In this document: one piece after another, positions 25,716 to 44,050 of the stretch
Position numbering within the stretch: the stretch's first letter is position 1
How the letters are laid out: the number at the start of each line of letters is the position of its first letter
Origin: Acidimicrobiales bacterium
GTDB lineage: Bacteria > Actinomycetota > Acidimicrobiia > Acidimicrobiales > JAUTXP01
Length of the DNA stretch: 64,000 nucleotides
NCBI GenBank assembly: GCA_035651095.1
Contig: DASRGI010000190.1
Location: 2,941 to 66,940 of the forward strand
Reading direction: 5' to 3'
Made by a program: the position numbers and the translations under genes
Notes under the pieces: model-generated
What the model saw: only the letters and a program-made list of their open reading frames with translations
Databases searched by the model: none
What the model was told of the DNA's origin: nothing

Positions 25716-25731
25716 TCGATTGATCAATCGA
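25716..25731. promoter_or_regulatory. Perfect 16-bp palindrome TCGATTGATCAATCGA: operator site A, upstream of the paaA-like gene
   Basis: Read directly. It lies just downstream of a TTGACA (25685-25690) and TACGCT promoter-like pair. Related copies occur at 31145, 33305 and 44035. Confidence 0.65.
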
Positions 25732-25779
25732 CAAATTCTGTTGAACACCGATTCCCTGTTGAGCACCTTCGGAGGAGCG

Positions 25780-26691
25780 ATGACGGAGCAGGTCGAAGAC
25801 CGGGCCCAGGATCCCCGTCTGGCGGTCCGCTACGAGCGCTGGGACGAGATGAGCGACGAGTACCGCACCGCGGCGGCCAAGGTGGCGTCGTTCCAGGCGT
25901 TGGCCGAGCTCGTCGGCGTCCTCCCGTTCAACGAGTGGATGGACCGGGTGCCGGACTACGCCCGCAAGCAGATGCTCGTGGCCAAGATCCAGGACGAGGT
26001 GGGGCACGGGCATGTCACCGCCCGGGTGGCCGAGGACCTCGGCGTCACCCGTGAGGAGATCCTCGAGGACTTCGCTGCCGGCAAGACCAAGCTCCTCAAC
26101 ATCTTCCACTACGGCTTCGCGACCTGGGAGGAGATCGGCCCGGCCGCCCTGCTCATGAACTCGGCCGCCATCGTCCAGTTCCAGTCGCTCGACCAGGGCA
26201 CGTACCTGCCCTACACCCGGGCGCTCAAGAAGATCGAGAAGGAAGAGGGCTTCCACTACCACCACGCCCTCGACCTCACGCACCAGATCATGCAGGAGGG
26301 CGAGGCCGAACAGCGGGCCATCGTGCAGGACGCCTTCGACACCTGGTTCCCGCGCCTGCTGGCCTACTTCGGCCCGCCCGACAGCGATCGCTACCACGAC
26401 AACGTCGGGTACAAGTTCGGTCTGAAGGTCGACTCCAACGACGACCTGCGCCAGCGCTGGATCGCCAAGATCGTCCCCGTGTTCCGCGAGCTGGGCGTGC
26501 ACGTGTCCGACGACCTGGCCTCGTGTGACGAGGAGAGCGGCGAGTGGTCCTACGTCGCCGTCGACTGGGCGGCGTCCAAGAAGCTCATCGCCGAAGGCGG
26601 TCCCAAGTACCAGGAGTGGGTCGACACGGTCCGCGGCTCGCTGGAGCGCAACGAGCGCTACCGGAAGGCCGCTCTGGCGCTGGCGGCCTGA
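25780..26691 (+). CDS. paaA: PaaA-like diiron acyl-CoA epoxidase catalytic subunit
   Basis: RBS GGAGGAG. Two EXXH motifs (QDEVGHGH, EKEEGFHYHH). The length and sequence are typical of 1,2-phenylacetyl-CoA epoxidase subunit A. Confidence 0.8.
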   Translation: MTEQVEDRAQDPRLAVRYERWDEMSDEYRTAAAKVASFQALAELVGVLPFNEWMDRVPDYARKQMLVAKIQDEVGHGHVTARVAEDLGVTREEILEDFAAGKTKLLNIFHYGFATWEEIGPAALLMNSAAIVQFQSLDQGTYLPYTRALKKIEKEEGFHYHHALDLTHQIMQEGEAEQRAIVQDAFDTWFPRLLAYFGPPDSDRYHDNVGYKFGLKVDSNDDLRQRWIAKIVPVFRELGVHVSDDLASCDEESGEWSYVAVDWAASKKLIAEGGPKYQEWVDTVRGSLERNERYRKAALALAA

Positions 26692-26692
26692 C

Positions 26693-26998
26693 GTGCACGC
26701 GGCCGACGACGATCCCAACGCCTACGAGGTGTTCGTCCAGATAGGCGGCTCGGGCAAGCCCGTGCAATACGTGGGCAGCGTCCGGGGCGCCGACCCGGTG
26801 CTGGCTTGGCACGCGGCCAAGGAAGTGTTCACCCGGCGGGAGGACTGCACCCAGCTGTGGGTGGTACCCCGCGCCGCGGTGGTGCGCAGCGACGCCGAGG
26901 ACGAGCTCGTCCTGGCCAAGGGCAGTGCTCGGCGCTACCGACTCCCCAGCTATCCAAGCAGCCGCCGCCGGATGCGCAGCCGCTCGGAGGTGGCGTGA
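26693..26998 (+). CDS. paaB: PaaB-like epoxidase subunit
   Basis: About 101 aa, with YEVFVQ...GKPVQYVGSVRGADPVLAWHAAKEVFTRRE...LWVVPR. Confidence 0.8.
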   Translation: MHAADDDPNAYEVFVQIGGSGKPVQYVGSVRGADPVLAWHAAKEVFTRREDCTQLWVVPRAAVVRSDAEDELVLAKGSARRYRLPSYPSSRRRMRSRSEVA

Positions 26999-27741
26999 TC
27001 CATGCACCGCTGGTCGTCGCCTGGTGCGACGACCTCTTCCTCCAAGGCCACCAGCTCGCTCGCTGGATCACCGACTACGTCGATCTCGAGGAGTCGCTCG
27101 CCATGGGCTCCGTCGCCCAGGAACACCTGGCCCACGCGGCCGCGCTCCTCGGCGCCTGCGAGATGAACGAGTACGAACGCGACGCCCACGTGTACGAGCG
27201 GCCCGCGGACCAGTGGTTCCCGTCCGCCCTCAGCTTCCTGCCCCGGCAGGACTGGCCCGCCACCGTGGCCCACGCCCTCTTCCTCAACCAAGGGCTGCTG
27301 GTGTTGCGCAGCCACGTGCAGCTGCCCGACAAGCCGCGCGTCCAGCAGCTGGCCGAGATCATCCGGGCCGAGCAGGACCTGCACGCCCGCCACTGGGCAC
27401 GCTGGGTCCGGGTGTTCGCATCCGACCCCGAGCTGGCCGACGAGTTCGGCGACCGGGTGGCCAAAGCCGCGGGCATGGCGGTCGACCTCTTCGGTTTCCC
27501 GGCCGGCGTCGACGGTCCCGACGCTCTGGTGGGCGACACCGACCCGGCCGACATGCAGCGGGAGTGGGCCAAGGCGACCACCTGCGTCCTCGAGGAGGCC
27601 GGCATCACCGCACCGGACCTGCCGGACACCCCGCAGCCCCGCCAGCCGGGCGACACCCGCGAGCCGCTGACCCAGGTCCTCGCCGAACTGCGCTGGGCGC
27701 GGGGCCCGGGAGGTGCCAACCGCTACGAGGTCTACCGGTGA
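26995..27741 (+). CDS. paaC: PaaC-like epoxidase structural subunit
   Basis: Its GTG overlaps the paaB stop. A helical ferritin-like sequence (CDDLFLQGHQLARWITDYVDLEESLAMGSVAQEHLAHA). Confidence 0.7.
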   Translation: MIHAPLVVAWCDDLFLQGHQLARWITDYVDLEESLAMGSVAQEHLAHAAALLGACEMNEYERDAHVYERPADQWFPSALSFLPRQDWPATVAHALFLNQGLLVLRSHVQLPDKPRVQQLAEIIRAEQDLHARHWARWVRVFASDPELADEFGDRVAKAAGMAVDLFGFPAGVDGPDALVGDTDPADMQREWAKATTCVLEEAGITAPDLPDTPQPRQPGDTREPLTQVLAELRWARGPGGANRYEVYR

Positions 27742-28199
27742 CCTCGGCCATCGAGGACGCCCTGGCCAAGGTCGAGGATCCCGAGGTCCCGGTCACCCTG
27801 CTGGATCTGGGCGTGCTGCGGAGCGTCACCGTCGACGCCGACCGCGTGGTGGTCCTGCTCCGCCCCACCCGGCTCGGATGCCCGGGCCGCGACCGCATGG
27901 AGCGGGACGTGACCACCGCCGTGCACGCCGTCGACCCCCACCTGGCCGTCGAGGTGGCGTGGGAGCCGCTGCCCTGGCGGGAGCAGGACGTCACCCCCGC
28001 GGGGCGGGCCGCCCTCAAGGACATCGGGTACGCCGTGCTGCTGGGTGGGCCGGCCCGGTGCCCGTACTGCGGGTCGGAGGACGCGAAGTCGGAAGGCGAG
28101 TTCGGCGGCGCGCTGTGCAAGGCGCCCTACACCTGCCGGTCGTGTGGCTCGACGTTCGATGCCATGCGCTCGGCCCTGGCGGCGTTGGGAGAGGCGTGA
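27738..28199 (+). CDS. paaD: PaaD-like (DUF59/SufT-type) protein with a C-terminal Cys4 ribbon
   Basis: Contains VEDPEVPVTLLDLGVLR, plus CPYCGS...CRSCGS. Both start and stop overlap the neighbouring genes. Confidence 0.75.
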   Translation: MTSAIEDALAKVEDPEVPVTLLDLGVLRSVTVDADRVVVLLRPTRLGCPGRDRMERDVTTAVHAVDPHLAVEVAWEPLPWREQDVTPAGRAALKDIGYAVLLGGPARCPYCGSEDAKSEGEFGGALCKAPYTCRSCGSTFDAMRSALAALGEA

Positions 28200-28972
28200 G
28201 CGCAACCGAGGAGATCCTGTACGAGATCAACGGCGGCGTCGCTCGCGTCACCATCAACCGCGCCCACCGCATGAACGCCTTCACGCTGGAGGGCGCCGAG
28301 CGGTTGGTGACCTGCATCCAGCAGGCCGGGGCCGACCCGGAGGTCGGCGTCATCGTCCTCACCGGCGCGGGCGAGCGGGCCTTCTGTACGGGCGGGGACG
28401 TGGGCGACTTCGAGAGCTTCACCATCGACGTCGACCGGGCCATGAACACGACCCTGCTCCGCCTATCGCACGAACTGCGGACGTGCGGCAAGCCGGTGAT
28501 CGCACGGGTGAACGGCTACTGCATCGGCGCCGGCAACGAGCTCAACATGCTGTGCGACCTCACCATCGCGGCCGAGCACGCCCGCTTCGGGCAGACGGGC
28601 CCGAAGATGGGGAGCGTGCCCAACTGGTGGGTCACGCAACTGCTGCCCCGCTCGGTGGGCGAGAAGCGGGCGCGGGAGATCGTCTATCTCTGCCTCCAGT
28701 ACTCGGCCGAGGAAGCCAGGGACATGGGCTGGGTCAACCGCGTGGTACCCAAAGAGGAGCTGGACGCGGCCGTGGCCGAGTGGTGCGAGCGCCTGCTGAC
28801 CATGAGCCCGACCGCCCTGCGCCTGGCCAAGATGGCGATCAACCAGGGAAGCGACCAGGCGTTCGCGGCGGTGACGCAGGGCATGGAGCTGATCACCTTC
28901 TTCCACGACACCGACGAGTCGAGGGAAGGCATGCGGGCCTTCTTGGAGAAGCGGCCGCCCAAGTTTCGCTGA
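28196..28972 (+). CDS. Crotonase-superfamily enzyme of the MenB/BadI type
   Basis: NGYCIGAGNELNMLCDLTIAAEHARFGQTGPKMGSV...EKRAREIVYLCLQYSAEEARDMGWVNRVVP closely parallels the MenB/BadI signature recalled from memory. Confidence 0.75.
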   Translation: MSATEEILYEINGGVARVTINRAHRMNAFTLEGAERLVTCIQQAGADPEVGVIVLTGAGERAFCTGGDVGDFESFTIDVDRAMNTTLLRLSHELRTCGKPVIARVNGYCIGAGNELNMLCDLTIAAEHARFGQTGPKMGSVPNWWVTQLLPRSVGEKRAREIVYLCLQYSAEEARDMGWVNRVVPKEELDAAVAEWCERLLTMSPTALRLAKMAINQGSDQAFAAVTQGMELITFFHDTDESREGMRAFLEKRPPKFR

Positions 28973-29014
28973 GCCGCACGCGGCCGGCGGCAGTTCCGTT
29001 GGCGGCCGAGCGGG

Positions 29015-29740
29015 CTAGAGCATGGCGTAGCCACCGTTGACGCTGAGCGTCTGACCGGTGATCCACTCCGACCGCTCGTCCAGGAAGAAGCGCACGGCGT
29101 TGGCGGCGTCCTCGGGCCGGCCCAAGCGGCCCATGGGATAGAAGCGGGGCATGCGCTCCAACTGCCGCTCGTCGAACGTCTCCAGGGCACCGGGTGTGAC
29201 CGTGGTGGAAAGCGACACGCAGTTCACGGTGATGCCGTGCTTGCCGACCTCTTTGGCCAGCGACCGGCTGAACCCGGCCACTCCCGCCTTGGCCGCGGCG
29301 TAGACGGCCACGCCGGGCTCGCCGGTGCGGCCGGAGTCCGACACGATGCTCACGATGCGGCCCCAGCCCCGCTCGATCATCCCGGGCAGCACGAGATGGC
29401 TGAGGTGGACGGGGCCCATCAGGTTGATGGCGATCTCGTCCTCCCACTGGGAAGGCGCGGCGTCGAGGAAGGGGCCCCACGTCCAGCGGCCGGCGTTGTT
29501 CACCAGCGCGTCGATCCGGCCGATGCCGGCCACGGCGGCGGCCAGTTGGTCGCGGTCGCGCACGTCGGCCACGTGGGTGGACACCCGCTCGGGCGGCAGC
29601 GCCGCGGCCATGGACTCGAGACGATCACCGTCCCGATCGACCGCGGCCACCACGTAGCCGGCGTCGACCAGTTCGGTGGCGATCTGCTCGCCCACGCCCT
29701 GGCCCGCGCCGGTGACCAGCGCGACCCGCTCTTCGCTCAC
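29015..29740 (-). CDS. SDR-family oxidoreductase
   Basis: 241 aa, with VALVTGAGQGVGE, the YAAAK catalytic motif and NAGR. Confidence 0.85.
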   Translation of the reverse strand: MSEERVALVTGAGQGVGEQIATELVDAGYVVAAVDRDGDRLESMAAALPPERVSTHVADVRDRDQLAAAVAGIGRIDALVNNAGRWTWGPFLDAAPSQWEDEIAINLMGPVHLSHLVLPGMIERGWGRIVSIVSDSGRTGEPGVAVYAAAKAGVAGFSRSLAKEVGKHGITVNCVSLSTTVTPGALETFDERQLERMPRFYPMGRLGRPEDAANAVRFFLDERSEWITGQTLSVNGGYAML

Positions 29741-30357
29741 GGTGCTTCCGGCAGGCCGATGAGGTTGCAGAACACGTCGGCCACGCCCGCGGGGTCGAGC
29801 GTCCGACCGGGCCGGTACCAGTGGTACATCCAGCAGACCATGCCCACCACGCCCTCGGTGACGATGGTGGTGGGGGCGTCGCTGGGGAAGGTGCCGTCGT
29901 CCTGTAGCTGCTTCACCAACTTGCTGATGCGGGCCATGAAGGCCTTCTCGTCCTTGGTCACCGCGGCCCGCAGGTCTTCGGGGAACGAGGAGTCGAGCTC
30001 CTTCCAGTAGACGGCGAACGTCTCCTGGTTCTCGATGACGGCGGCCACGAAGGCGCCGATGATGGCCCGGAGCTGGGCGGCCGGGGGCGCGTCGGGATCG
30101 GCGGCATCGAGCGAAGCCAGGATGTCGTGGTCGACCTGGAGGGCGATCTGGCGCAGCAGATCGTCCTTCGACCCGACGTAGTGGTAGATCGCCGGCTGGC
30201 TCAGCCCCACCTCGGCGGCGATCTCCTTGGTGGTCCCGGCCGCGAACCCCCGGCGGTAGAACACCAGCGCCGCGCCTCGCAGGATGTCCCGGCGCTTCCG
30301 CTCGAATCCCGCCGACCGGTCGATGACAGGCGCCGGCTCACTCGCTGATTTGGCCAC
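29737..30357 (-). CDS. TetR/AcrR-family transcriptional regulator
   Basis: 206 aa, with FYRRGFAAGTTKEIAAEVGLSQPAIYHYVGSKDDLL. It sits between two SDR genes on the same strand. Confidence 0.9.
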   Translation of the reverse strand: MAKSASEPAPVIDRSAGFERKRRDILRGAALVFYRRGFAAGTTKEIAAEVGLSQPAIYHYVGSKDDLLRQIALQVDHDILASLDAADPDAPPAAQLRAIIGAFVAAVIENQETFAVYWKELDSSFPEDLRAAVTKDEKAFMARISKLVKQLQDDGTFPSDAPTTIVTEGVVGMVCWMYHWYRPGRTLDPAGVADVFCNLIGLPEAP

Positions 30358-30384
30358 GTCCCCTTCCCTCCCCCGGCTGGCGCC

Positions 30385-31152
30385 TCATGTGTGCCCGCAC
30401 GAGAGGCCACCGTCGACGTACAGTACTTGGCCGCTTACGTAGCCAGCCGATTCGCTCAGCAGAAACCCGCACACATTGGCAACGTCTGCCGCTGATCCGG
30501 CCCGGCGAGCAGGCACCCGGGACAGGAACTTCTCGTAGGCCGCGGGCGCCGCCTCCCGGAAACTGGCATTGGCCGGCGTCTCGATCACCCCCGGGCACAG
30601 CACGTTGGCCGTGATCCCGGAACGGCCACCCTCGATGGCCGCCGTCTTGGCCAACCCCACCAGGCCGGCCTTGGCCGCCGCGTAGTTGGCCTGCCCGAAG
30701 TTGCCGTCCTTGGCCACCGACGACATGGCCACGAACCGGCCGAAGCCGTGGTCGACCATCTGGGGCCACAGGGCTCGCAGCAGGCGAAAGGGCCCGGTGA
30801 GGTCGACGTCGAGCACGCGGCCCCAGCGGTCGTCGTCCAGCTTGGGCACGCGGTCGTCGAGGAAGATCCCGGCGTTGGCCACGCCGGCCACCACCGGGCC
30901 GAGGGCGGTGGCGTCGTCGATCAGGGCGGCCAGCGTGTCGCCGTCCGACGCGTCGCCCACCCGCGTCACCACGCCCGGGCCCTTCAGATCGGCCAGGCCG
31001 GCGCCGTCCAGGTCCAGGGCGGCGACGCGCCACCCGCCGTCGAGCAACACGCGAGCCACGGCCGCGCCGATGCCCTGGCCGGCGCCGGTGACGACAGCGA
31101 CGGCGCCCTCGGGGCGCGGTGGGTTGGACGCGGTGGTTCTTCGGTCGATCGG
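30385..31152 (-). CDS. SDR-family oxidoreductase whose Rossmann motif lies upstream of the first canonical start codon
   Basis: The ORF track starts at GTG 31059. However, the in-frame codons at 31060-31152 encode ...PEGAVAVVTGAGQGIGAA and contain no ATG, GTG, TTG or CTG. The catalytic YAAAK motif is present. The true 5' end is unresolved. Confidence 0.6.
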   Translation of the reverse strand, partial: PIDRRTTASNPPRPEGAVAVVTGAGQGIGAAVARVLLDGGWRVAALDLDGAGLADLKGPGVVTRVGDASDGDTLAALIDDATALGPVVAGVANAGIFLDDRVPKLDDDRWGRVLDVDLTGPFRLLRALWPQMVDHGFGRFVAMSSVAKDGNFGQANYAAAKAGLVGLAKTAAIEGGRSGITANVLCPGVIETPANASFREAAPAAYEKFLSRVPARRAGSAADVANVCGFLLSESAGYVSGQVLYVDGGLSCGHT

Positions 31153-31160
31153 TCAATAGA
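31145..31160. promoter_or_regulatory. Operator-like site B, TCGATCGGTCAATAGA (13 of 16 matches to site A)
   Basis: It lies in the 20-nt gap between the divergent SDR and crotonase genes. Confidence 0.4.
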
Positions 31161-31169
31161 ATCAGGTCC

Positions 31170-31985
31170 GTGCCAGAAGGTCAACGACCGCTCCTCGTCG
31201 ATCTCGACGACGGCGTGCTGGAGCTGACGCTCAACCGGCCCCACGTGCGCAACGCCCTCGACCACGACATGGAGGCCATGCTCGAGACGGCGTTGCAGCA
31301 CGCCCACGACGACCCGGCGGTCCGGGCCGTCACCCTCACCGGCGCGGGCGGTGCGTTCTGTGCGGGCGCCGACCTGTCGGCCATGAAGTCCCGACCCCAT
31401 CGGGCCGACCTGCCGCCCGAGGATCGGGTCCGGGCCCGGGCCGACGAGCGGGACCGCCTCACGTGGGCCTTCGCCAATGTGGTCCGCCTGGCCGAGCTGC
31501 CCCAGCCCACCATCGCTGCCCTGCAGGGGCCGGTCGCCGGCGCCGGCATCGGCCTGGCCGCGGCGTGCGACATCCGCATCGCGGCGGCGAGCACCCGCTT
31601 CGCCATGGCCTTCGCCCGCGTGGGCCTGCCCGGGGACTGGGGCGTCACCCTGCTGCTCTCCGACCTGGTGGGCCGGGCCCGGGCTCGCCAGTTGTTGTTG
31701 CGAGCGGCCGTGGTCGACGCCAAGGAGGCCCAGGGCCTCGGCCTGGTGGACGAGGTGGTGCCCGACGACCATCTGGACGACGCCCGGCGCACCCTGGCCG
31801 CCGAGTTGGCCGCGGGACCGTCGGCCGCCTACGCGGCCACCAAGCGGCTGACCGCCCTGCCCGGCCTGCGCGACCGCATCCGGCAGGAGATCGAGGCCAC
31901 GCTCGAATGCCAGGAGACGGCCGACCACGCCGAGGGCGTGCGGGCCTTCCTGGACAAGCGCCCGCCGACGTTCACTGGCCGCTGA
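31170..31985 (+). CDS. Enoyl-CoA hydratase/isomerase family protein
   Basis: GTG start within ORF 31119..31985. Contains LTGAGGAFCAGADL...GPVAGAGIGLAAACDIRIA...EGVRAFLDKRPPTF. Confidence 0.85.
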   Translation: MPEGQRPLLVDLDDGVLELTLNRPHVRNALDHDMEAMLETALQHAHDDPAVRAVTLTGAGGAFCAGADLSAMKSRPHRADLPPEDRVRARADERDRLTWAFANVVRLAELPQPTIAALQGPVAGAGIGLAAACDIRIAAASTRFAMAFARVGLPGDWGVTLLLSDLVGRARARQLLLRAAVVDAKEAQGLGLVDEVVPDDHLDDARRTLAAELAAGPSAAYAATKRLTALPGLRDRIRQEIEATLECQETADHAEGVRAFLDKRPPTFTGR

Positions 31986-32005
31986 CCCCACCCCCCCCTT
32001 CCGTT

Positions 32006-32048
32006 CTCGTGACCCACACTGGGTCTCTGGCGGCGCCAGCGTCACGAG
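32006..32048. terminator. Nested inverted repeat (CTCGTGAC...GTCACGAG with inner CTGGCG-G-CGCCAG) between convergent genes
   Basis: Read directly. No U-tract is present. Confidence 0.4.
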
Positions 32049-32061
32049 CATGCCGGGTGGG

Positions 32062-32466
32062 TCAGGTGGCGTCGGCCCGGCCCGCCTCCAGGACCCACTC
32101 GGGCAGGGGTTGGGGCTTCATGGTCGACATGTCGACCCACACCCGCACGATGCGGCCCCGCCCCACGACCGTGCCCTCCTGGTTGGTGAACTCGTGCTCG
32201 CACGTGAAGCTCGTGCGCCCGCCGGGGACGATGCGGATGTGCTGCAGGATGCTGTCCCCCGCGCCGGTGGGCGCCACGAAGTCGCACTCGGCGTGGACGG
32301 CCGGGCACGTGGTGCCCGAACCGGCGTGCTCGGCCACGGGATGGCCCAAAGCCTCCATGTAGTCCTGGTCGCCCTCGGACATGTACCGGAAGTAGCTGGC
32401 GAAGAAGATGAGCCCGGACAGGTCGTCGTCACCCAGGTAGACGGTCCGCCGCCGTTCGAAGGGCAT
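32062..32466 (-). CDS. Hotdog-fold acyl-CoA thioesterase (4HBT/YbgC-like)
   Basis: 134 aa, with VYLGDDDLSGLIFFASYFRYM... Confidence 0.7.
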   Translation of the reverse strand: MPFERRRTVYLGDDDLSGLIFFASYFRYMSEGDQDYMEALGHPVAEHAGSGTTCPAVHAECDFVAPTGAGDSILQHIRIVPGGRTSFTCEHEFTNQEGTVVGRGRIVRVWVDMSTMKPQPLPEWVLEAGRADAT

Positions 32467-32858
32467 CAGGAACCAGCCACCCAGGCGACCTCGCCTCGCG
32501 CCACCTCGGTGCCGTCGGCCCCGACGGCCCGCACGTCGGCCACCACCAGGTCGCCTTCGGTGCCGCGCACGGTCACCTCGGTGGTGAGCACGCTGCCCGG
32601 GAACACCGGGGCGGTGAGGTCGACCTTGAGGCGGCGCAGGTTGTCGACGCCGACGTGACGGCTCACCGCCGCGCCCACGTAGGACACGGCGAAGGTGCCG
32701 TGGGCGATGACGCTCGGGAGCCCGATGTCCTTGGCGAACTCGTCGTCCACGTGCACGGGGTTGGGATCGCGCATGGCCACGGCCATGTAGGCCAGGCGCA
32801 TGCGGCTGATCTCCGGCGTGGTGAGGGGCGGGGGGGTGGTGGGGGTGGGGTCGGTCAT
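32466..32858 (-). CDS. MaoC-like (R)-specific enoyl-CoA hydratase subunit (HadB/ChsH1-like)
   Basis: Internal ATG of ORF 32466..33173. Contains RDPNPVHVDDEFAKDIGLPSVIAHG. Confidence 0.8.
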   Translation of the reverse strand: MTDPTPTTPPPLTTPEISRMRLAYMAVAMRDPNPVHVDDEFAKDIGLPSVIAHGTFAVSYVGAAVSRHVGVDNLRRLKVDLTAPVFPGSVLTTEVTVRGTEGDLVVADVRAVGADGTEVARGEVAWVAGS

Positions 32859-32863
32859 GTCGG

Positions 32864-33277
32864 TCAGCCTCGTTGGATGGTGGTCGAACGCTCCCGGGCG
32901 GCGAGGGTGCCGTCGGGTAGGCGGTACTCGGTGGTGAGCTCCACGAAGGTGAGGTCGCCTCGGGAGCCCGACTTGGTGAAGTGGTTGGACACGAAGGGCG
33001 CCACGGTGAGGGTGTCGCCCACCCGGATGGGGGCGAAGAACTCGGCGTCCATGCCGCCGTACACGGCCTTGCGGAAGTCGATGTGGAACGAGTCGTGCAC
33101 AGCGTCGGCGCCGTACATGGTCACGTACATCAGGAAACCGGGTGGGACGGGGTTGCCCGGCTCGGGTGCCCACCCCTCCTCGGGGGCGACGCCCAGGGCC
33201 TCGACATAGAGGCCGACCCGCCAGGGGTCGAGGGTCACGGTCTTCTCGGGGAAGCGATGGCCGGCTTCGACGGGCAC
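32864..33277 (-). CDS. MaoC N-terminal-type hotdog subunit (HadA/ChsH2-N-like)
   Basis: GTG start with RBS GAGAGGAG. Contains FDPWRV-like TLDPWRVGLYVEALG...VYGGMDAEFFAPIRVGD. Confidence 0.7.
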   Translation of the reverse strand: MPVEAGHRFPEKTVTLDPWRVGLYVEALGVAPEEGWAPEPGNPVPPGFLMYVTMYGADAVHDSFHIDFRKAVYGGMDAEFFAPIRVGDTLTVAPFVSNHFTKSGSRGDLTFVELTTEYRLPDGTLAARERSTTIQRG

Positions 33278-33304
33278 GGCGCTCCTCTCGGTCCTCGGCG
33301 CTAG

Positions 33305-33320
33305 TCGATCAATGAATCGA
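33305..33320. promoter_or_regulatory. Operator-like site C1, TCGATCAATGAATCGA (13 of 16 matches to site A)
   Basis: It lies in the divergent region between the MaoC pair and the thiolase gene. Confidence 0.45.
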
Positions 33321-33372
33321 TCAGGAGAGGATAGGGACGCAGTCGCGCTCGATGCAACCGTCCGTCCCGTCG

Positions 33373-33416
33373 TTGACACCGGAGGTATCCGTAGGTTAAA
33401 TAGATCGATAAATCGA
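33373..33416 (+). promoter_or_regulatory. TTGACA / TAAATA promoter-like pair followed by the short palindrome TCGATAAATCGA (site C2)
   Basis: An AT-rich tract upstream of the thiolase ATG. It has the same TCGAT/ATCGA half-sites as site A but a 2-nt spacer. Confidence 0.4.
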
Positions 33417-33458
33417 CTCGGCCGCTCAGGCCGGGTGGTCGGAACGCGAGGGGGGTGC

Positions 33459-34622: not shown

Positions 34623-34629
34623 CCGACTG

Positions 34630-36564: not shown

Positions 36565-36600
36565 TCACACCAGACAGCAACAACACACACATGGAGGGGG

Positions 36601-37896
36601 TTGCACAACGTGCGAAGCTGGCGTAGCTGGAGCGCTCTGCTCGTCGTGCTCGCGCTGTTCGCCGGCGCGTGTGGCGGCAGCGGGGGCAGCAAAGGCGCGA
36701 GCAGTGACACCACTGCCGCGGCCGGGAAGAAGGCGACGGGCGAGCCGATCCGTGTCGGGTGGTTGACCGACGCGACGTCGGTGACCCGGGGGACGTACTT
36801 CCCCGAGTACGAGGGGGCGAAGCTCTTCTTCTCGAACCTGAACGACAACGGGGGCATCGATGGTCGCCCGGTCGAGCTGTTGGTCGAGGACATGAAGATC
36901 GACCCGCAGTTGGCGGTCACGGCCGCCACCAAGCTCATCAAGGAGCGCAACGTCATCATGCTGGCGGGGGGCACCATCGAAGGTCGCCTGCCACCGGTGT
37001 TCGAAGTGGTCCGGGCCAACGGCGTGCCGTTCCTCACGGGGCACAGTGCCCGGCCCGACATGTTCCCGCCCAAGCCCGACCCGCTGCTGTTCACCGCGGG
37101 CAACGTGTTCGAGGCCATGTCCGACGCCCGGGTGAAGTTGTGGCCGAAGGTGTTCGACAAGGACTTCCCGAACGGTGGCACGTCGGCCTGCTACATCCAC
37201 GAGGCGCCTGCCGCCTTCGCGGTGTGCAACCGCTGGCTGGATCAGCAGCAGAAGGCCACCCCGCAGTGGAAGCCCGGCACCATCGCCAAGGCCCCGCTGC
37301 AGACCACGGACTTCACCAACTACATCCGCCCGGTGGTGGACTCCAAGCCCACGGTGTTCTTCGACATCTCCATCGCCTCGCACGCCATCGGTGCCGCGGT
37401 CAGCGCTCGGAACCTGGGTTACCAGGGCCCCATCGCCTTCTCGATGACGGCTACGCCGGAGACCGACATCAACGAGGTCATCAAGCAGGTGGGCGGCCAG
37501 AACATCTACGCCCTGAGCAACGTGACGTCGATCGACGAGACCCAGGTCCCCGAGGTCAAGAAGGTGATCGACATGGCCAAGAAGTACGGCACGGAGATCG
37601 CCCCCAACTCGGGCACCCTCAACGGGTGGATGATGGCGATGATCATCGCCGACTCCCTGAAGCGCTGCGGCGCCGGCTGCGACCGGACCAAGCTGCGTGA
37701 CGCGGTGGAGAAGACGAACATCGACACCAAGGGCCTCACTGGCGGCAACATCGCCTACGGCCCCGACGATCACGTGGGCAAGCGGTACTGGACGGCCTAC
37801 AAGTACGACACCTCCAAGAAGACGCTGGTTCGTGTCGTCAAGGACTGGATCACGTTCGACCCCAAGACCGATCTGCTGGCGCCACTCGCCAAGTAG
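36601..37896 (+). CDS. ABC transporter substrate-binding lipoprotein (Liv/branched-chain-amino-acid type fold)
   Basis: 431 aa with lipobox LFAGAC and IRVGWLTDATS... Start is TTG 36601 or GTG 36610. Confidence 0.85.
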   Translation: MHNVRSWRSWSALLVVLALFAGACGGSGGSKGASSDTTAAAGKKATGEPIRVGWLTDATSVTRGTYFPEYEGAKLFFSNLNDNGGIDGRPVELLVEDMKIDPQLAVTAATKLIKERNVIMLAGGTIEGRLPPVFEVVRANGVPFLTGHSARPDMFPPKPDPLLFTAGNVFEAMSDARVKLWPKVFDKDFPNGGTSACYIHEAPAAFAVCNRWLDQQQKATPQWKPGTIAKAPLQTTDFTNYIRPVVDSKPTVFFDISIASHAIGAAVSARNLGYQGPIAFSMTATPETDINEVIKQVGGQNIYALSNVTSIDETQVPEVKKVIDMAKKYGTEIAPNSGTLNGWMMAMIIADSLKRCGAGCDRTKLRDAVEKTNIDTKGLTGGNIAYGPDDHVGKRYWTAYKYDTSKKTLVRVVKDWITFDPKTDLLAPLAK

Positions 37897-37913
37897 CGGT
37901 CTGACCTGTTCTC

Positions 37914-37948
37914 GGCCCGCGCCCCTGTTCCCCCCCGGGGCGCGGGCC
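37914..37948 (+). terminator. Perfect 12-bp GC stem (GGCCCGCGCCCC / GGGGCGCGGGCC) after the binding-protein gene
   Basis: Read directly. It lies 18 nt after the stop codon and 32 nt before the next gene. Confidence 0.55.
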
Positions 37949-37979
37949 GACGACCACCTGAGGAATCCCCCGGACAACC

Positions 37980-38867
37980 ATGGATCTCACCGTCTTCGTC
38001 GACATCGCCAAGCTCGCCGGCATCTACCTGGGGATGGCCCTCGGCTTCGTGATCGTCTACCGGGCCTCGCGGGTGCTGAACCTGGCCCAGCCCGGACTGA
38101 TCATGCTCGGCGCCTTCGCGACGTTGACCTATCTCCCGAAGTACGACAGCGGTCCGCGAGCCACGCCCGCGTTCTGGCTCACGGCCCTGGCTCTCGTGGC
38201 CGGCGGCGCCGTGGTCGGTCTCGTGGTGTACGTGGCGCTGGTGCGGCCCATGGCCGGCGAGAGCCGCGTGTCGATCGTGCTCATGACGCTCGCCGTGCTG
38301 TTCCTGCTCGAAGCCGCCGTCGAGGTGCACTGGCGGGGCGAGCGGGGCTTCATGTCCTTGCCCGGCAACCAGGTCAACTACACGATCTTCGGTACCCACG
38401 TGCGCCTCTTCGACCTCGTCCCCCTGGTCGTGGGCCTGGCCATGTGGTCGGGCGTGGCCGCCTTCTACAAGTGGTCGAAGGCGGGCATCCGCATCCGGGC
38501 CGTGGCCGAGAGTCCCGCCCTGGCCGCCCGGCGGGGCATCAACATCGATCGGATCGGCGCCCTGTCGTGGGCGCTGGCCGTCGCCGTCGCCGTCGTGTCC
38601 GCCTTCACCAGCGGGACGCAGGGGCCGGTGAGCGGGCTGCTCGTGGGCAGCGCGCTGAAGGGCTTCACCGTCGCCCTGGTCGGCGGGCTGGACAGCATCG
38701 GTGGGTTGTTGCCGGCGGCGCTGATCGTGGCCGCCAGCGAGGTCATCACGGTGCGCTGGGTGGACCAGCAATGGGGTGAGGCCATCCCCTTCGTGGTGCT
38801 GCTCGTCGTCCTGATGATCAAGCCATGGGGCCTGGCGGGCACGGTCGAGGAGCTCGAACGTGTCTAG
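37980..38867 (+). CDS. Branched-chain-type ABC permease (LivH-like)
   Basis: 295 aa, multi-TM, with a typical LivH-like sequence. Confidence 0.85.
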   Translation: MDLTVFVDIAKLAGIYLGMALGFVIVYRASRVLNLAQPGLIMLGAFATLTYLPKYDSGPRATPAFWLTALALVAGGAVVGLVVYVALVRPMAGESRVSIVLMTLAVLFLLEAAVEVHWRGERGFMSLPGNQVNYTIFGTHVRLFDLVPLVVGLAMWSGVAAFYKWSKAGIRIRAVAESPALAARRGINIDRIGALSWALAVAVAVVSAFTSGTQGPVSGLLVGSALKGFTVALVGGLDSIGGLLPAALIVAASEVITVRWVDQQWGEAIPFVVLLVVLMIKPWGLAGTVEELERV

Positions 38868-39963
38868 CGCCACGCGCCTGCTGGAGCGCTCGCCGTACCT
38901 CCACGAGGACTACTCGTCCGACCTGGCCCTGTTCCCCTACTCGGCCAAGCGCATCGCCGCCATCGTCATCCTGGTCGCCGCCGCCCTGGCCCTGCCCATG
39001 GTGGCCACCGACTTCATCGTCAACGTCGTCAACTTCACCTTGATCGCGGTGATCGGGGCCATCGGACTGCAACTGCTCACGGGCATGGCCGGGCAACTGT
39101 CGCTGGGCCACGCCGCCTTCCTGGGCACGGGCGCGCTGGTGTCGTCGGGCCTGTGGTTCCACTTCGAGCTCCCGTTCTGGCAGGCCGTCCCCCTGGCCGC
39201 GGTGGCCGGCGGCCTGGTGGGCCTGCTGGCCGGCATTCCCGCCCTGCGCCTACGGGGCCTGTACCTGGGCATCACCACCCTGGCCGTGCAGGCCATCGTG
39301 GCCGTGGCCGGCCTGAAGTACCAGCTGTACCTCCAGCGCCGGTACGGCACCGGTGCCGACCTCAACGTGCCCCGCCCCAACATCGGCTTCTTCACCGTCG
39401 AGACGGTGCGGCAGTGGTACTTCCTGCTGGCCGTGATCGCCTTGGTGGGCCTGGGCTTTGCCGCCAACCTGGCCCGGTCGCGGCTCGGCCGGGACTGGGT
39501 GGCGCTGCGCCGGCGGGAGGTCGTGGCCGAGAGCCTGGGCGTGAACGTGGCCCGCCAGAAGCTCGTGGCCTTCGTGCTGAGCGGCGTGTTCGGTGGGATC
39601 GCCGGCGCCCTGCTCGCCTACTACTTCCGCAACGTCAGCATCGAGGACTTCAACCTGCAACTGTCGGTCGAGTACCTGGCCATGATCATCGTGGGCGGTC
39701 TCGGATCAGTGCAGGGCACGGTGTACGGCGCCGCCTTCGTGACGGCGACGCCGTTCGTGGTGGGCGAGGCCGTCGACCGGTTGGGGCTCACGAAGTCGCT
39801 GGGCGCCAACCTGCGGGGCATCGAGCTGGGTGTGTTCGCCCTGGCCATGATGGCGTTCCTGCTCTTCGAGTCGGACGGCCTGGCCGGCGTGTGGAAGCGG
39901 CTGAAGGCGTACTTCGTGCGCTGGCCGTACCGGTACACGAGCCTGTCGCGGGGATCGCGCTGA
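38860..39963 (+). CDS. Branched-chain-type ABC permease (LivM-like)
   Basis: 367 aa, multi-TM, with GQLSLGHAAFLGTGA. Confidence 0.85.
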   Translation: MSSATRLLERSPYLHEDYSSDLALFPYSAKRIAAIVILVAAALALPMVATDFIVNVVNFTLIAVIGAIGLQLLTGMAGQLSLGHAAFLGTGALVSSGLWFHFELPFWQAVPLAAVAGGLVGLLAGIPALRLRGLYLGITTLAVQAIVAVAGLKYQLYLQRRYGTGADLNVPRPNIGFFTVETVRQWYFLLAVIALVGLGFAANLARSRLGRDWVALRRREVVAESLGVNVARQKLVAFVLSGVFGGIAGALLAYYFRNVSIEDFNLQLSVEYLAMIIVGGLGSVQGTVYGAAFVTATPFVVGEAVDRLGLTKSLGANLRGIELGVFALAMMAFLLFESDGLAGVWKRLKAYFVRWPYRYTSLSRGSR

Positions 39964-40739
39964 TGCTCGAACTGCGGCAGGTGGAGGTCGTCTACAACAA
40001 GCTGGCCACGGCCGTCTCCGGCGTGTCGTTGTCGGTGGAGCAGGGCGCCATCACCACGCTGCTGGGTACCAACGGGGCGGGCAAGACGACAACGCTCAAG
40101 ACCATCTCGGGGTTCCTGCGTTCCGAGAACGCCGACATCACCGAGGGCGAGATCCTCTTCGAGGGCAGGGACATCCGGGGCCTGGCGCCCCACGAGGTGA
40201 GCAAGCTGGGCATCGCCCTGGTGCCCGAGCGGGACAAGGTGTTCGACACGCTCACGGTCGACGAGAACCTGCGGGCTGCGTCAGTCACCAGCGCGGGGGT
40301 GACCGAGGCCTACGAGCTGTTCGAGCGCCTCAACCAGGTGCGCACCCGCCTGGCCGGGTACCTGTCCGGCGGCGAGAAGCAGCTGCTGGCCATGGCCATG
40401 GCCCTGAGCACGAAGCCCCGGCTGCTGCTGGTGGACGAGCTGTCGTTGGGCCTGGCGCCCATCATCGTCTCCCGCTTGCTGGCCGACCTCCAGCGGGTCC
40501 AGAAGGACCTGGGCCTGACCGTGCTGCTGGTCGAGCAGAACGCGGCCGCCGCCCTGCGGGTGGCGAACTACGGGTACGTGATCGAGGACGGGCGCATCGT
40601 GTTCGACGGCGACGCCGACCGCCTCCTGAACCACGGCGACATCATGGAGTTCTACCTGGGCGCCGAGGACGACGAGGGCGAGCGACGGTCGTACCGGGAC
40701 GTGCGCCAGTACCGGAGGAAGCGCCGGTGGTGGGGATGA
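39963..40739 (+). CDS. ABC transporter ATP-binding protein (LivF-like)
   Basis: Its ATG overlaps the upstream stop. Walker A GTNGAGKTT; signature LSGGEKQLL. Confidence 0.85.
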   Translation: MLELRQVEVVYNKLATAVSGVSLSVEQGAITTLLGTNGAGKTTTLKTISGFLRSENADITEGEILFEGRDIRGLAPHEVSKLGIALVPERDKVFDTLTVDENLRAASVTSAGVTEAYELFERLNQVRTRLAGYLSGGEKQLLAMAMALSTKPRLLLVDELSLGLAPIIVSRLLADLQRVQKDLGLTVLLVEQNAAAALRVANYGYVIEDGRIVFDGDADRLLNHGDIMEFYLGAEDDEGERRSYRDVRQYRRKRRWWG

Positions 40740-40755
40740 CGGTGGTGGGGATGAC
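40726..40755. repeat. Exact 15-bp tandem duplication GGTGGTGGGGATGAC x2 at the livF-like/livG-like junction
   Basis: Read directly. It duplicates the overlapping stop/start junction (GGGGATGA). Confidence 0.9.
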
Positions 40756-41554
40756 GGCGCCGGCGGGCGGGCCGATCTTGGAGGTGCGGGACGTCAGCAT
40801 CCGCTTCGGCGGGGTGGCGGCCGTGTCGGACACGAGCTTCACCGTGGGCGACGACGAGTTGGTCGCCCTGGTGGGCCCCAACGGTGCCGGCAAGACGGCG
40901 CTGCTCAACGCCATCTGCGGCATCTACCGGCCGTTGTCGGGAACGATCCTGCTCGACGGTCGCGAGATCCAGGGCAAGCACGTGCACCGCATCGCGGCGA
41001 TGGGCGTGGGACGGTCGTTCCAGCACGCCGAGGTGCTGGAGGAGCTCACGGTCGTCGAGAACCTCCTTGCTGCCCGCCACCTCGCGCTGGGCAGCAACGT
41101 GCTGGCCATGGGGCTGTACTTCGGGCCCTACAAGCGGCGGGAGATCGCGGCCCGGCAGGCGATCGAGGAGGTCATCGACTTCTTCGAGATCGAACGCTAC
41201 CGGCACCAGCACGTCGGGTCGCTGGCGTTCGGCGTGCAGAAGATGGTGGGCGTGGCCCGCGCCGTGTGCATGGAGCCGCGGGTGTTGCTGCTGGACGAGC
41301 CCTCGTCGGGGCTCACCCGGCAGGAGAAGGAGGACTTCGCCCGCTTCCTGCTCCGGCTCCGGTACGACCGCAAGCTGCCCGTGCTGTGGGTCGAGCACGA
41401 CATGCAGATGGTCACCGACCTGGCGGACCGCCTGATCGTCCTCGACTACGGCCGCAAGATCGCCGACGGCGTGCCCAACGAGGTCATGCGCCTCCCCGAG
41501 GTGGCCGCCGCCTACCTGGGCGTGGAGACCGAGGAGCTGGCCGACGGCGTTTGA
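40727..41554 (+). CDS. ABC transporter ATP-binding protein (LivG-like)
   Basis: Walker A GPNGAGKTA, and LEVRDVSIRFGGVAAV. Start ambiguous (GTG 40727, ATG 40736 or ATG 40751) because of the duplication. Confidence 0.85.
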   Translation: MVGMTVVGMTAPAGGPILEVRDVSIRFGGVAAVSDTSFTVGDDELVALVGPNGAGKTALLNAICGIYRPLSGTILLDGREIQGKHVHRIAAMGVGRSFQHAEVLEELTVVENLLAARHLALGSNVLAMGLYFGPYKRREIAARQAIEEVIDFFEIERYRHQHVGSLAFGVQKMVGVARAVCMEPRVLLLDEPSSGLTRQEKEDFARFLLRLRYDRKLPVLWVEHDMQMVTDLADRLIVLDYGRKIADGVPNEVMRLPEVAAAYLGVETEELADGV

Positions 41555-41588
41555 CCGCGCTTCGTACGGTATTTCGGACGAAGCGCGG
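41555..41588. terminator. Perfect 11-bp stem hairpin (CCGCGCTTCGT / ACGAAGCGCGG) between convergent operons
   Basis: Read directly. It starts 1 nt after the livG-like stop. Confidence 0.55.
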
Positions 41589-41603
41589 CCAAAACTCGTG
41601 CGG

Positions 41604-42032
41604 TTAGCGGCGGGCGAGGATGCCGGTGGTGTCGAACGACAGCATCGGCTCGCCGGCTTCGTCCCGCAGCATGAACGCCCAGTTGACGATGCCGTGCCCC
41701 TTGGAGCTGACCCGATGTTCGCCGATGGTGACGGTGGCGCGCACGGTGTCGCCCGGGCGCAGGGGCTTGTACCAGCGCACGCGCTCCATGGCGATGCCGC
41801 CCCGCCCGTCCTCGCCCTGCAACCCCATGTCGAGCCACAGCTGCCACGCCACCGCCAGCGTCATGAACCCCGATGCGATGAGCCCGCCGAACGGGCTGGC
41901 GGCCGCCGCCGCCGGGTCGGTGTGCATGGGCTGGTTGTCGTAGCGCCGGGCGAACTCGATCATCTCGTCCTGTGACACCGTGCGGGTGCCGGACACGAAC
42001 TCCTGCCCCTCCTTGAAGTCCTCGAACTTCAT
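41604..42032 (-). CDS. MaoC-like dehydratase (hotdog fold)
   Basis: 142 aa from the internal ATG of ORF 41604..42731. Contains YDNQPMHTDPAAAAASPFGGLIASG. Confidence 0.8.
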   Translation of the reverse strand: MKFEDFKEGQEFVSGTRTVSQDEMIEFARRYDNQPMHTDPAAAAASPFGGLIASGFMTLAVAWQLWLDMGLQGEDGRGGIAMERVRWYKPLRPGDTVRATVTIGEHRVSSKGHGIVNWAFMLRDEAGEPMLSFDTTGILARR

Positions 42033-43198
42033 GCCCGGCCTCCCGTGAACAACGACGATGACAGTGCGTTCAGCAAGCTCTCGGTGGTGCCGCCCGCGAT
42101 GGTCCAGCCTCGCAGCTGGCGGTACCACAGCTCGGCTGGGTGCTCCCGGTCCCGCACCATGCCCCGCCACCCCTGCAACTGCACGGCCTGCTCGGCCAGC
42201 TGCACGGCCGTGCGGGACGCCAGCAGCTTGGCCGCGGCGGCCTCGCGGGCGGGCGGGAACCGGTGCTCGTCCCGGTCGGCCAACCGGGCGGCCCGGTAGG
42301 TCAACAGCCGGGCCTGCTCCAGTGCCAGCGCCAGCTCGGTGACGCGCCAGCGCAGCCCTTGGAAGTCGGCCAGCGGCTGGCCGAACTGGTGCCGCGACTC
42401 CAGGTGGGCGACGACGTGGTCGAGCACGGCCTGCCCGGCACCCACGCACATGGCGGCGATGCCCAGACGCATGGTGTTGTAGCTCTGCATGGCGGGCTTG
42501 AAGCCCTCGACCACCACGCAGTCGGCCGGCACCACGCAGCGGTCGAAGCGCACCACCGCCTCGGGGATGGCGTTGCCGCCGATCTTGTGCCACGACCGCT
42601 CGACGGTCACCCCGGGTGTAGCCCCGTCGACCAGCACGTACCCCAGGCCCGACAGGCCCGGGCCCGGCCCGCCGGCGAACCGGCCCAGCACCAGGTGGGC
42701 ACCTGCCAGACCGCCCGCGGTCACGAAGCACTTGGTGCCCTCGACCACGACGGTGTCGCCGTCCCGTTCGAACGACGTGGCGACGTCAGCCAACGACGAG
42801 CCTGCGTCCTCCTCGGTGATGGCGATGGTGACGAGCGTCGTGCCCGCCAGCACGCCCGGCAGCAACCGCTTTCGCAACGACTTCGAACCGAGCCGGCTGA
42901 TGGCGTAGGGCGGGCCGTTCAGCGCGATCTGGGCCACCTCGGCGAGCGTGAGCGAGCGGTAAGCGAGCTGTTCCTGGACGACCACCGACGTCAGCCGGTC
43001 GGCGCCCTGGCCACCGTCCTCCTTGGGGAGGGTCAGGCCCAACATGCCGGACGCGGCCAAGGCCTCGACCGACTCGGCCGGGTACCGGGCCTCCTCGTCC
43101 CACCCGTACTCGTCCACGGGCAGCCCGTCCGCCACCGTGCGGGCCCAGTCCCGGGCGGCCACGTGGGCGGGCGTGAGGTCGAGGTCGGCGGCGTCCAT
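42029..43198 (-). CDS. Acyl-CoA dehydrogenase family protein
   Basis: 389 aa from the internal ATG of ORF 42029..43963. Contains ITEEDAGSSLADV, QFGQPLADFQGLRW and a C-terminal IAGGTTESL. Confidence 0.85.
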   Translation of the reverse strand: MDAADLDLTPAHVAARDWARTVADGLPVDEYGWDEEARYPAESVEALAASGMLGLTLPKEDGGQGADRLTSVVVQEQLAYRSLTLAEVAQIALNGPPYAISRLGSKSLRKRLLPGVLAGTTLVTIAITEEDAGSSLADVATSFERDGDTVVVEGTKCFVTAGGLAGAHLVLGRFAGGPGPGLSGLGYVLVDGATPGVTVERSWHKIGGNAIPEAVVRFDRCVVPADCVVVEGFKPAMQSYNTMRLGIAAMCVGAGQAVLDHVVAHLESRHQFGQPLADFQGLRWRVTELALALEQARLLTYRAARLADRDEHRFPPAREAAAAKLLASRTAVQLAEQAVQLQGWRGMVRDREHPAELWYRQLRGWTIAGGTTESLLNALSSSLFTGGRA

Positions 43199-44019
43199 CA
43201 CGCCAGCCCGAACAGGCGAGCGGCGTTGCCCCACATGACGGCCTCGATGGTGGCGGCCTCGTACGGGAGCTCGGCCATCTGGGCGATGAGCCGGGAGGGC
43301 GGCGGGGACGACGGCCAGTCGGTGCCCCACACCACCTTGTCCCGCACCCGGTCCAACTCGGGGAACCACTCGGGCAACCGCTTGGGAGGCAGCCCCGACA
43401 GCTCCATCCACACGTTCTGCCGCATGCGCACGAGGGAGTACACCTGGCTGGTCCAGAACCCCCGGCCGGCGTGGGCGCAGATCAGCAGGAGGTCGGGGAA
43501 GTCGGCCGCCACCTCGTCGACCAGCAGCGGGTCGCAGAACCGCATCTTGGCGCCGGGAAACACCGACGACCCGACGTGCACGAGCACCGGCACGCGCAGG
43601 CGCTCGGCCACCTCGTACAGCGGGTAGAGGGCCCGGTCGTTGGGCGGCAGTTGGTACGTGGCCGGGTGGACCTTCAGCCCGCGTGCCCCGGCGGCGATGG
43701 CGGCCTCGAACCGGGCCCGGGCTCCCGGCTCGGCCCGAGGGTCGTACTGCACGAAGGGCAACAGCATCCCGTCCGACGCGGCCGTGTAGGAGAGCGTCTG
43801 CTCCTCCACGGCCCGCCGCCCGGGCGGGATGGCGATGGCGTGGGTGACGCCCTGGCCCTTGAGGTAGGCGGCCACGCGTGCCCCGTCGACGTCGTGCGAC
43901 AGCAGCTCCATGGTCTTGGGGTCGCTCAGCTCGCTCGCCAGGTGCAAGCCCTCGGGGATCCATTCGCTCGTGGCGCCCACGTGGACGTGGAAGTCGAAGA
44001 CACGCTCGATATCGGCCAT
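43198..44019 (-). CDS. Amidohydrolase-2-type metal-dependent TIM-barrel hydrolase
   Basis: 273 aa, with VFDFHVHVG (HxH), LICAHAG and VVWGTDWP. Confidence 0.75.
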   Translation of the reverse strand: MADIERVFDFHVHVGATSEWIPEGLHLASELSDPKTMELLSHDVDGARVAAYLKGQGVTHAIAIPPGRRAVEEQTLSYTAASDGMLLPFVQYDPRAEPGARARFEAAIAAGARGLKVHPATYQLPPNDRALYPLYEVAERLRVPVLVHVGSSVFPGAKMRFCDPLLVDEVAADFPDLLLICAHAGRGFWTSQVYSLVRMRQNVWMELSGLPPKRLPEWFPELDRVRDKVVWGTDWPSSPPPSRLIAQMAELPYEAATIEAVMWGNAARLFGLA

Positions 44020-44034
44020 GGACCCGGGATATTA

Positions 44035-44050
44035 TCGACTGATCAATCGA
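44035..44050. promoter_or_regulatory. Operator-like site D, TCGACTGATCAATCGA (15 of 16 matches to site A)
   Basis: It lies in the 87-nt divergent region between the amidohydrolase and aldehyde dehydrogenase genes. Confidence 0.6.

Follow-up and report, generated by a model that had tools for sequence, protein, structure and literature searches.

Predicted operators of an uncharacterised TetR subfamily at the promoters of a CoA-dependent catabolic gene cluster in Acidimicrobiales and other Actinomycetota

PaaR is a TetR-type repressor of the phenylacetate (paa) genes in Thermus thermophilus, Burkholderia cenocepacia, Corynebacterium glutamicum, and Streptomyces pristinaespiralis, and its effector is a coenzyme A (CoA) thioester, phenylacetyl-CoA, not the free acid. 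The paaR gene lies within or next to genes for the PaaABC(D)-type acyl-CoA oxygenase, and palindromes are found at several promoters of the cluster. A similar layout is present in a 64-kb stretch of DNA from an Acidimicrobiales bacterium (positions 2,941 to 66,940 of contig DASRGI010000190.1; the window hereafter), in which a 16-bp palindrome, TCGATTGATCAATCGA, recurs at the promoters of a 22-kb gene cluster for aromatic/acyl-CoA breakdown. The sole regulator or DNA-binding protein encoded in this cluster is a TetR-family protein (29737-30357, minus strand; the window TetR), the middle gene of an operon in which it is flanked by two short-chain dehydrogenase/reductase (SDR) genes, SDR2-TetR-SDR1. 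Judging from sequence comparisons, we consider it likely that the five copies of the palindrome are operators for a homodimer of this protein.

The resemblance to PaaR does not extend to the operators or to the oxygenase. Published PaaR sites (ACCGACCGGTCGGTT in Burkholderia, CNAACGNNCGTTNG and AACnAACGTTnGTT in Thermus, and AACGA-N4-TCGGT in S. pristinaespiralis) are unrelated to TCGATTGATCAATCGA, which agrees with an earlier note on this DNA that held the motif to be distinct from PaaR operators. Unlike the products of a canonical paa cluster (PaaABCDE, PaaK, and PaaZ/PaaG/PaaJ), the PaaA-, PaaB-, PaaC-, and PaaD-like proteins of the window fall below the NCBIfam equivalog cut-offs (234 vs 280, 49 vs 85, 67 vs 133, and 90 vs 108 bits, respectively). 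Also unlike PaaR, the TetR and its motif are paired at a second kind of operon, encoding a Rieske/LigB dioxygenase. By the tests available, the operators and the oxygenase scores set the window system apart, and it does not appear to be a PaaR.

The window TetR has an N-terminal helix-turn-helix (HTH) domain (PF00440 TetR_N, residues 25-70, E 1.3e-13) and a C-terminal ligand-binding and dimerisation domain (PF17932 TetR_C_24, E 5e-22). No NCBIfam equivalog exceeded its cut-off for this protein; the best match, to the SACE_7040 family, reached 47 bits where 250 are required. The nearest Protein Data Bank (PDB) entries by sequence were 3dcf, PfmR (3vpr), 3ccy, AibR, 2ibd (an uncharacterised Rhodococcus RHA1 protein), Mce3R, and KstR2. 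An AlphaFold model (mean predicted local distance difference test, pLDDT, 94.4; ten helices) superposed best on PfmR in Foldseek, followed by AibR, KstR2, DarR, and Bacillus FadR, with template modelling (TM) scores of 0.7-0.8 against PfmR, AibR, and KstR2. PfmR (TTHB023 of T. thermophilus) is the best fold match (Foldseek E 7e-9, TM 0.76-0.83) and the second-best PDB sequence match, at an identity of only ~26%. Its operators resemble those of the window in being 16-bp pseudo-palindromes that lie over transcription starts, sometimes two to a promoter, and in bidirectional regions. In contrast to the window motif, the PfmR operator, 5'-TACCGACCGNTNGGTN-3', is GC-rich and lacks a 4-bp T..A periodicity.

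AibR of Myxococcus xanthus (5k7f/5k7h/5k7z), KstR2 of Mycobacterium tuberculosis (4w97/4w1u), and Bacillus FadR (3whb/3whc) share the TetR_C_24-like fold at 16-23% identity to the window TetR; AibR has been solved with isovaleryl-CoA and with operator DNA, and FadR with stearoyl-CoA. Together with PfmR, these three are acyl-CoA-responsive repressors among the solved proteins nearest to the window TetR by sequence and fold. Their regulons differ, comprising isovaleryl-CoA biosynthesis (AibR), steroid rings C/D (KstR2), and fatty acids (FadR). Some homologues of the window TetR bear a JGI label of 'cholesterol catabolism regulator'. We did not find this label supported as orthology, the window protein being only ~22% identical to KstR2 (Rv3557c, 4w97; profile E 4e-18). 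Its gene and those of its relatives are surrounded by PaaABCD-like or Rieske dioxygenase sets and not by steroid ring C/D genes. The KstR2 operator, AnCAAGnnCTTGnT, is likewise unrelated to the window motif.

Searching the whole window for TCGATTGATCAATCGA with up to three mismatches returned exactly five matches against 0.08 expected by chance, a number reached by none of 100 dinucleotide-preserving shuffles. The candidate operators, to which no strand is assigned, are A (25716-25731), a perfect palindrome identical to TCGATTGATCAATCGA; D (44035-44050, TCGACTGATCAATCGA), with one mismatch; and B (31145-31160, TCGATCGGTCAATAGA), C1 (33305-33320, TCGATCAATGAATCGA), and C2 (33401-33416, TAGATCGATAAATCGA), with three mismatches each. 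A symmetrised matrix derived from these five sites scores them at 31.6, 27.6, 23.5, 25.4, and 26.0 bits, respectively. The best other 16-mer in the 64 kb, an off-register copy of site A, reaches 12.9 bits; no copy of the motif was found by this matrix scan outside the cluster within the window. The mismatch search bears out what the earlier note had read by eye, namely a perfect palindrome at A, 15 of 16 matching positions at D, and 13 of 16 at both B and C1, and its impression that no copy lies outside the cluster holds for the 64 kb. Its treatment of C2 as a short-spacer variant is unneeded, this site being in register an ordinary 16-mer with 13 matching positions. The consensus consists of four T-N-N-A tetramers, an AT-rich word that is conspicuous because the GC content of the window is 65-77%. 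As that note also described, the sites lie in divergent intergenic regions of a high-GC sequence, and between them they occupy all four divergent gaps of the cluster.

The putative promoters place the predicted operators at -10/+1, the classical position for steric repression. Site A starts 1 nt past a -10-like TACGCT (25709-25714), itself separated by 18 nt from TTGACA (25685-25690), and ends 48 nt before the ATG of the paaA-like gene (25780). The TTGACA/TACGCT pair that the earlier note had remarked on is therefore present as described, but it fails an E. coli-type consensus scan, TACGCT fitting only the looser actinobacterial -10 pattern TANNNT. Site B is placed in a 17-nt gap between the SDR2-TetR-SDR1 operon (minus strand) and the crotonase gene ECH2 (plus strand), where it overlaps back-to-back -10 boxes, TAGAAT (31157-31162, plus) and TTCTAT (minus). 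The minus strand reads TTGACC-17-TTCTAT ahead of the SDR2-TetR operon, and an equivalent of site B with the same layout was found in a metagenome contig (L177, one of the loci described below). The ECH2 transcript is probably leaderless, since its GTG follows only 7 nt after TAGAAT. The MaoC N-subunit gene (minus) has its GTG at 33277, with site C1 28 nt upstream, and C2 follows TTGACA (33373-33378), 17-18 nt, and a -10-sized segment, 43 nt upstream of the thiolase ATG (33459). Site D separates the amidohydrolase gene (minus, ATG 44019, 15 nt away) from the aldehyde dehydrogenase gene (plus, ATG 44107) and abuts a -10-like TATTAT that ends at 44035 and forms the pair TCGATA-18-TATTAT. Only the site D region has a -35/-10 pair that passes the E. 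coli-type scan of the four regions, and the promoter assignments therefore rest on looser actinobacterial rules together with conservation. Palindromic operators of about 15-17 bp over the promoters of the target genes, mostly also over that of the regulator itself, are usual for the TetR family, and all five 16-bp sites take this form, including the one at the promoter of SDR-TetR-SDR.

An Acidimicrobiales metagenome-assembled genome (MAG) encodes a protein 100% identical to the window TetR, which has about 100 homologues at 45-80% identity, nearly all in Actinomycetota. We aligned 39 homologues, in which the HTH segment is near-invariant, and fetched 54 genomic loci (labelled L with a number), 36 of them with a TetR at least 39% identical (691 kb) and 18 with a more distant one (278 kb). 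The former contain 38 site clusters of at least 20 bits, distributed over 27 of the 36 loci, whereas shuffling within 200-bp blocks gives 0.2, an enrichment of ~190-fold. Around TetR proteins of at most 37% identity (the 18 distant loci), there are two such clusters. With the threshold at 18 bits, 18 of 47 site clusters fall in the 450 bp that precede the TetR gene, where 1.1 would be expected (binomial P ~1e-17), and 15 of the 36 relatives have a site upstream of their gene. The motif goes with the HTH signature GTTKEIA..GL[ST]QPxIYHYVGSK, and relatives with TTIQDLA..LAAGGIYHYVGSK are without it.

The catabolic cluster as a whole is conserved in Solirubrobacterales (L001), Blastococcus aggregatus (L002), Frankiales (L003), Nocardioides carbamazepini (L004), Ilumatobacteraceae (L022), and Prauserella flavalba (L036), in part in Pseudonocardia nigra (L032), and also in the metagenome contig L177, the TetR of which is 80% identical to that of the window. 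Syntenic clusters from at least seven lineages carry the motif at orthologous promoter positions. The motif lies 30-60 nt upstream of paaA in L001, L002, L003, L022, L036, and L177, the last with the identical perfect palindrome, and is the sole block conserved when the upstream regions of six paaA genes are aligned. The gap between the MaoC N-subunit and thiolase genes holds a pair of sites in the window, L001, and L177 and a single one in L002, L004, L022, and L036; equivalents of site D are present between the amidohydrolase and aldehyde dehydrogenase genes of L004 and L036. The 33 distinct sites from other genomes have TCGATTGATCAATCGA as their consensus, the same as site A, a result that is partly circular, the sites having been found with the window matrix. 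An 8-mer enrichment that made no use of this matrix recovered GATCAATC, ATCAATCG, TCAATCGA, and ATTGATCG at 33-48-fold. A further enriched word, CTACAAACA, was rejected as a regulatory element; it is coding sequence of a ligase C-terminus. One contig labelled as a Burkholderia sp. MAG (L009, CAZZVR010000088.1) carries an actinobacterial-type TetR (49% identity), and a 22.7-bit site precedes the gene by 120 bp; this contig may be mis-binned.

TetR relatives of 42-52% identity in Nocardia, Actinomadura, Pseudonocardia, Aeromicrobium, and a Mycobacterium MAG are linked to a different operon, encoding an alpha/beta hydrolase, a LigB extradiol dioxygenase, a Rieske ferredoxin, Rieske dioxygenase alpha and beta subunits, an SDR, a ferredoxin reductase, an NMO-type enzyme, and an AMP-dependent ligase. 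There the motif is situated between the dioxygenase operon and the divergent TetR gene; in Nocardia, it heads an 11-gene operon of which TetR is the last gene. This distribution supports the view that the motif follows the regulator and not the pathway. Taken with the enrichment, the position of the sites, and the synteny, it lends in silico support to the proposal of the earlier note that the sites are operators of one dimeric HTH repressor, defining a regulon, with the in-cluster TetR as the binder.

In the mechanism that we infer, a TetR dimer would bind each site and act in repression rather than activation, with an acyl-CoA as the effector. The start of each operator would fall on the -10 hexamer, or immediately behind it, at one or both promoters of a divergent region, and the bound repressor would keep RNA polymerase from up to seven transcription units with about 24 genes, among them its own SDR-TetR-SDR operon, which would amount to autoregulation. 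Imported substrate would be converted to an acyl-CoA thioester by one of the two CoA ligases of the cluster; most likely, this thioester would bind the C-terminal domain, whereupon the protein would leave the DNA and the genes would be induced. An acyl-CoA effector is suggested because both kinds of regulated cluster encode CoA ligases, and is predicted also because AibR and FadR have been solved with such ligands bound. On both grounds, the inducer is probably an acyl-CoA intermediate.

Several observations weigh against assigning the sites to the window TetR. The promoter hexamers are weak by E. coli rules, three of the four regions failing the strict scan. The motif scan of the source genome covers this 64 kb only, and the matrix used on the other genomes is window-derived, so that the sites found there are not fully independent, which the 8-mer test mitigates. 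Related species account for many of the loci (eight Nocardia and eight Actinomadura), and L002 and L003 carry only 15-19-bit sites. An exact scan of metagenome contigs for TCGATTGATCRATCGA returned at least 80 loci, mostly of 30-57% GC, and a TetR relative was present in none of the loci among the matches listed; one copy of the word on its own is thus not diagnostic. This reverse scan is uninformative, a single AT-rich 16-mer arising by chance in low-GC DNA. Finally, the Pseudonocardia loci L006, L016, and L017 are without a strong match and have TTGATAG-NN-CTATCAA instead, which may represent a diverged operator specificity within the subfamily. This variant keeps the outer tetramers while the inner ones are changed, and lies upstream of TetR at ~9830 in L006, ~7130 in L016, and ~9780 in L017.

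It is conceivable, though in our judgment unlikely, that the operator is a modular tetranucleotide array that grows or shrinks by 4 bp and not a fixed 16-bp palindrome. Seven Nocardia loci and that of Actinomadura rupiterrae (L012) have arrays of 6-9 TCGA, TCAA, or TTGA units spanning 24-36 bp, where the window has four units. These arrays extend between a TATCGT -10-like box and the ribosome-binding site of the 11-gene dioxygenase operon (852-875 in L012, 1098-1133 in L014, 1074-1109 in L020, 1106-1133 in L023, 1259-1282 in L025, 1151-1182 in L027, 1110-1133 in L029, and 1121-1144 in L030), and their length differs among species in 4-bp steps. They offer several overlapping binding registers because each T-N-N-A unit keeps the palindromic skeleton. 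If the operator were such an array, several TetR dimers might bind cooperatively, or repeat slippage might tune or switch repression. Repeats of the (CAAT)n type act in this manner in phase-variable Haemophilus genes.

There is a slight chance that a different regulator encoded elsewhere in the genome, such as an IclR-type or global carbon-catabolite protein, binds the sites and that the TetR recognises something else. Only 64 kb of the source genome is visible, and an IclR gene adjoins the motif in Nocardia and some Actinomadura loci, being adjacent in eleven dioxygenase-type loci altogether. It is absent, however, from the window, from all PaaABCD-type loci, syntenic ones included, and from ten further motif-bearing loci (L007-L010, L018, L021, L028, L031, L033, and L034). 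Since IclR is missing from most motif-bearing loci, we rejected it as the binder, and TetR is the only regulator common to them all. The piling up of sites directly upstream of the TetR gene and the tracking of the motif with the TetR HTH signature likewise point to the window TetR.

Marginally less probable again is that the TetR does bind these sites but as an activator or dual regulator instead of a simple repressor. A minority of TetR-family proteins activate, for example FasR, which is among the weak NCBIfam and fold matches of the window TetR. Against this, the predicted operators overlap or abut the -10 boxes and likely transcription starts, sites B and D cover both divergent promoters, and descriptions of PfmR, AibR, and KstR2, the closest relatives to have been characterised, present them as repressors.

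We give hardly any credence to the sites being LexA/SOS boxes or a different TCGA-N8-TCGA element, or to their having arisen by chance from AT-rich intergenic DNA or restriction-methylation words (GATC, TCGA). The motif is indeed built from GATC and TCGA words and shares an outer TCGA...TCGA frame with the actinobacterial SOS box, TCGAAC-N4-GTTCGA. The LexA box was rejected, however: none of the five sites is within two mismatches of the SOS pattern, the GAAC/GTTC core (positions 3-6 and 11-14) is lacking, and the pattern is barely enriched in the window (six matches vs 2.6 expected; 4 of 100 shuffles reach six), while the genes are catabolic, shuffles that keep the local composition give 0.2 site clusters vs 38 observed, and the positions at orthologous genes are conserved.

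The transcription units predicted to be under the control of the TetR lie in the cluster between about 25.3 and 47.1 kb, which was mapped by third-codon-position GC (GC3) frame analysis, Pfam, and NCBIfam, with comparison of frame plots and orthologues, and which alternates between divergent units. A glyoxalase-like gene (minus strand) comes first. Unit 1 (25780-28972, plus) encodes PaaA-like (25780-26691), PaaB-like (26693-26998), PaaC-like (~27000-27741), and PaaD-like (27741-28199) proteins and a crotonase (~28200-28972) that is closest to the BadI/MenB ring-hydrolysing enzymes. Unit 2 (29015-31152, minus), with site B at its promoter, comprises SDR2 (30385-31152), TetR, and SDR1 (29015-29740), and unit 3 (31170-31985, plus) is ECH2. 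Unit 4 (32062-33277, minus) encodes the MaoC N-subunit (32864-33277), a MaoC protein (32466-~32867), and a 4HBT thioesterase (32062-32466). Unit 5 (33459-41554, plus) encodes an SCP-x-type thiolase, a FadD-like CoA ligase, and a branched-chain-type ATP-binding cassette importer of five genes (a binding protein, two permeases, and two ATPases). Unit 6 (41604-44019, minus) consists of amidohydrolase_2 (43198-44019), acyl-CoA dehydrogenase (42029-~43171), and MaoC2 (41604-42020), and unit 7 (44107-47093, plus) of aldehyde dehydrogenase (44107-45480) and a second AMP-dependent CoA ligase (~45480-47093). On either side of the cluster lie unrelated genes (furA-katG, a luciferase-like monooxygenase, FTR1, hydantoinase, GGDEF-EAL, and MEDS). 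Among these, a Fur-family regulator gene directly upstream of catalase-peroxidase (13374-16162, minus) has no relation to the motif; a furA-katG arrangement is typical of actinobacteria.

No match to PaaE, PaaK, or PaaZ was found among the cluster genes scanned, the ligases being FadD-like, and for this reason the substrate is probably not phenylacetate. The genes at 25780-28972 look like an undescribed aryl- or alicyclic-CoA oxygenase route and not like phenylacetate degradation. In another locus (L175, TetR 73% identical), the PaaA/B/C-like genes are followed by genes for CO-dehydrogenase-type FAD-binding and 2Fe-2S subunits and a COXG-like protein (10569-14517), which may stand in for PaaE as the reductase; this locus has one 18-bit site, 31 bp upstream of TetR.

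The start of SDR2 is anomalous (31059-31155, minus). No ATG, GTG, or TTG occurs between an in-frame stop (31153-31155) and the Rossmann motif (GAVAVVTGAGQGIG), L177 has GTG where the window has TCC, and only an ATC (31147-31149) inside operator B is usable. The gene may use a non-canonical start or be decaying, or the assembly may contain an error. The SDR2 copy of L177 is frameshifted further downstream.

A literature search for the palindrome, its 12-mer variants, and TTGATCAA in combination with TetR or operator returned only primers and unrelated matches. The operator motif and the regulon prediction are new for an uncharacterised TetR subfamily, while the type of regulation is known already: the general understanding of TetR regulation is unchanged, and a conventional switch of this kind will not surprise a specialist. 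The predicted operator belongs to a subfamily that is widespread in Actinomycetota, with carriers in Acidimicrobiia, Thermoleophilia, and Actinomycetes, the last including Nocardia, Actinomadura, Pseudonocardia, Nocardioides, and Blastococcus. Once its inducer is known, the predicted pair of operator and repressor might find use in high-GC hosts as a biosensor or an orthogonal switch. For the organisms themselves, the predicted regulon delimits two poorly understood gene sets for CoA-dependent degradation of aromatic or alicyclic acids, one a PaaABCD-like oxygenase route and the other a Rieske/LigB dioxygenase route with a CoA ligase, and the inducing acyl-CoA, once found, would reveal the substrate of these clusters.

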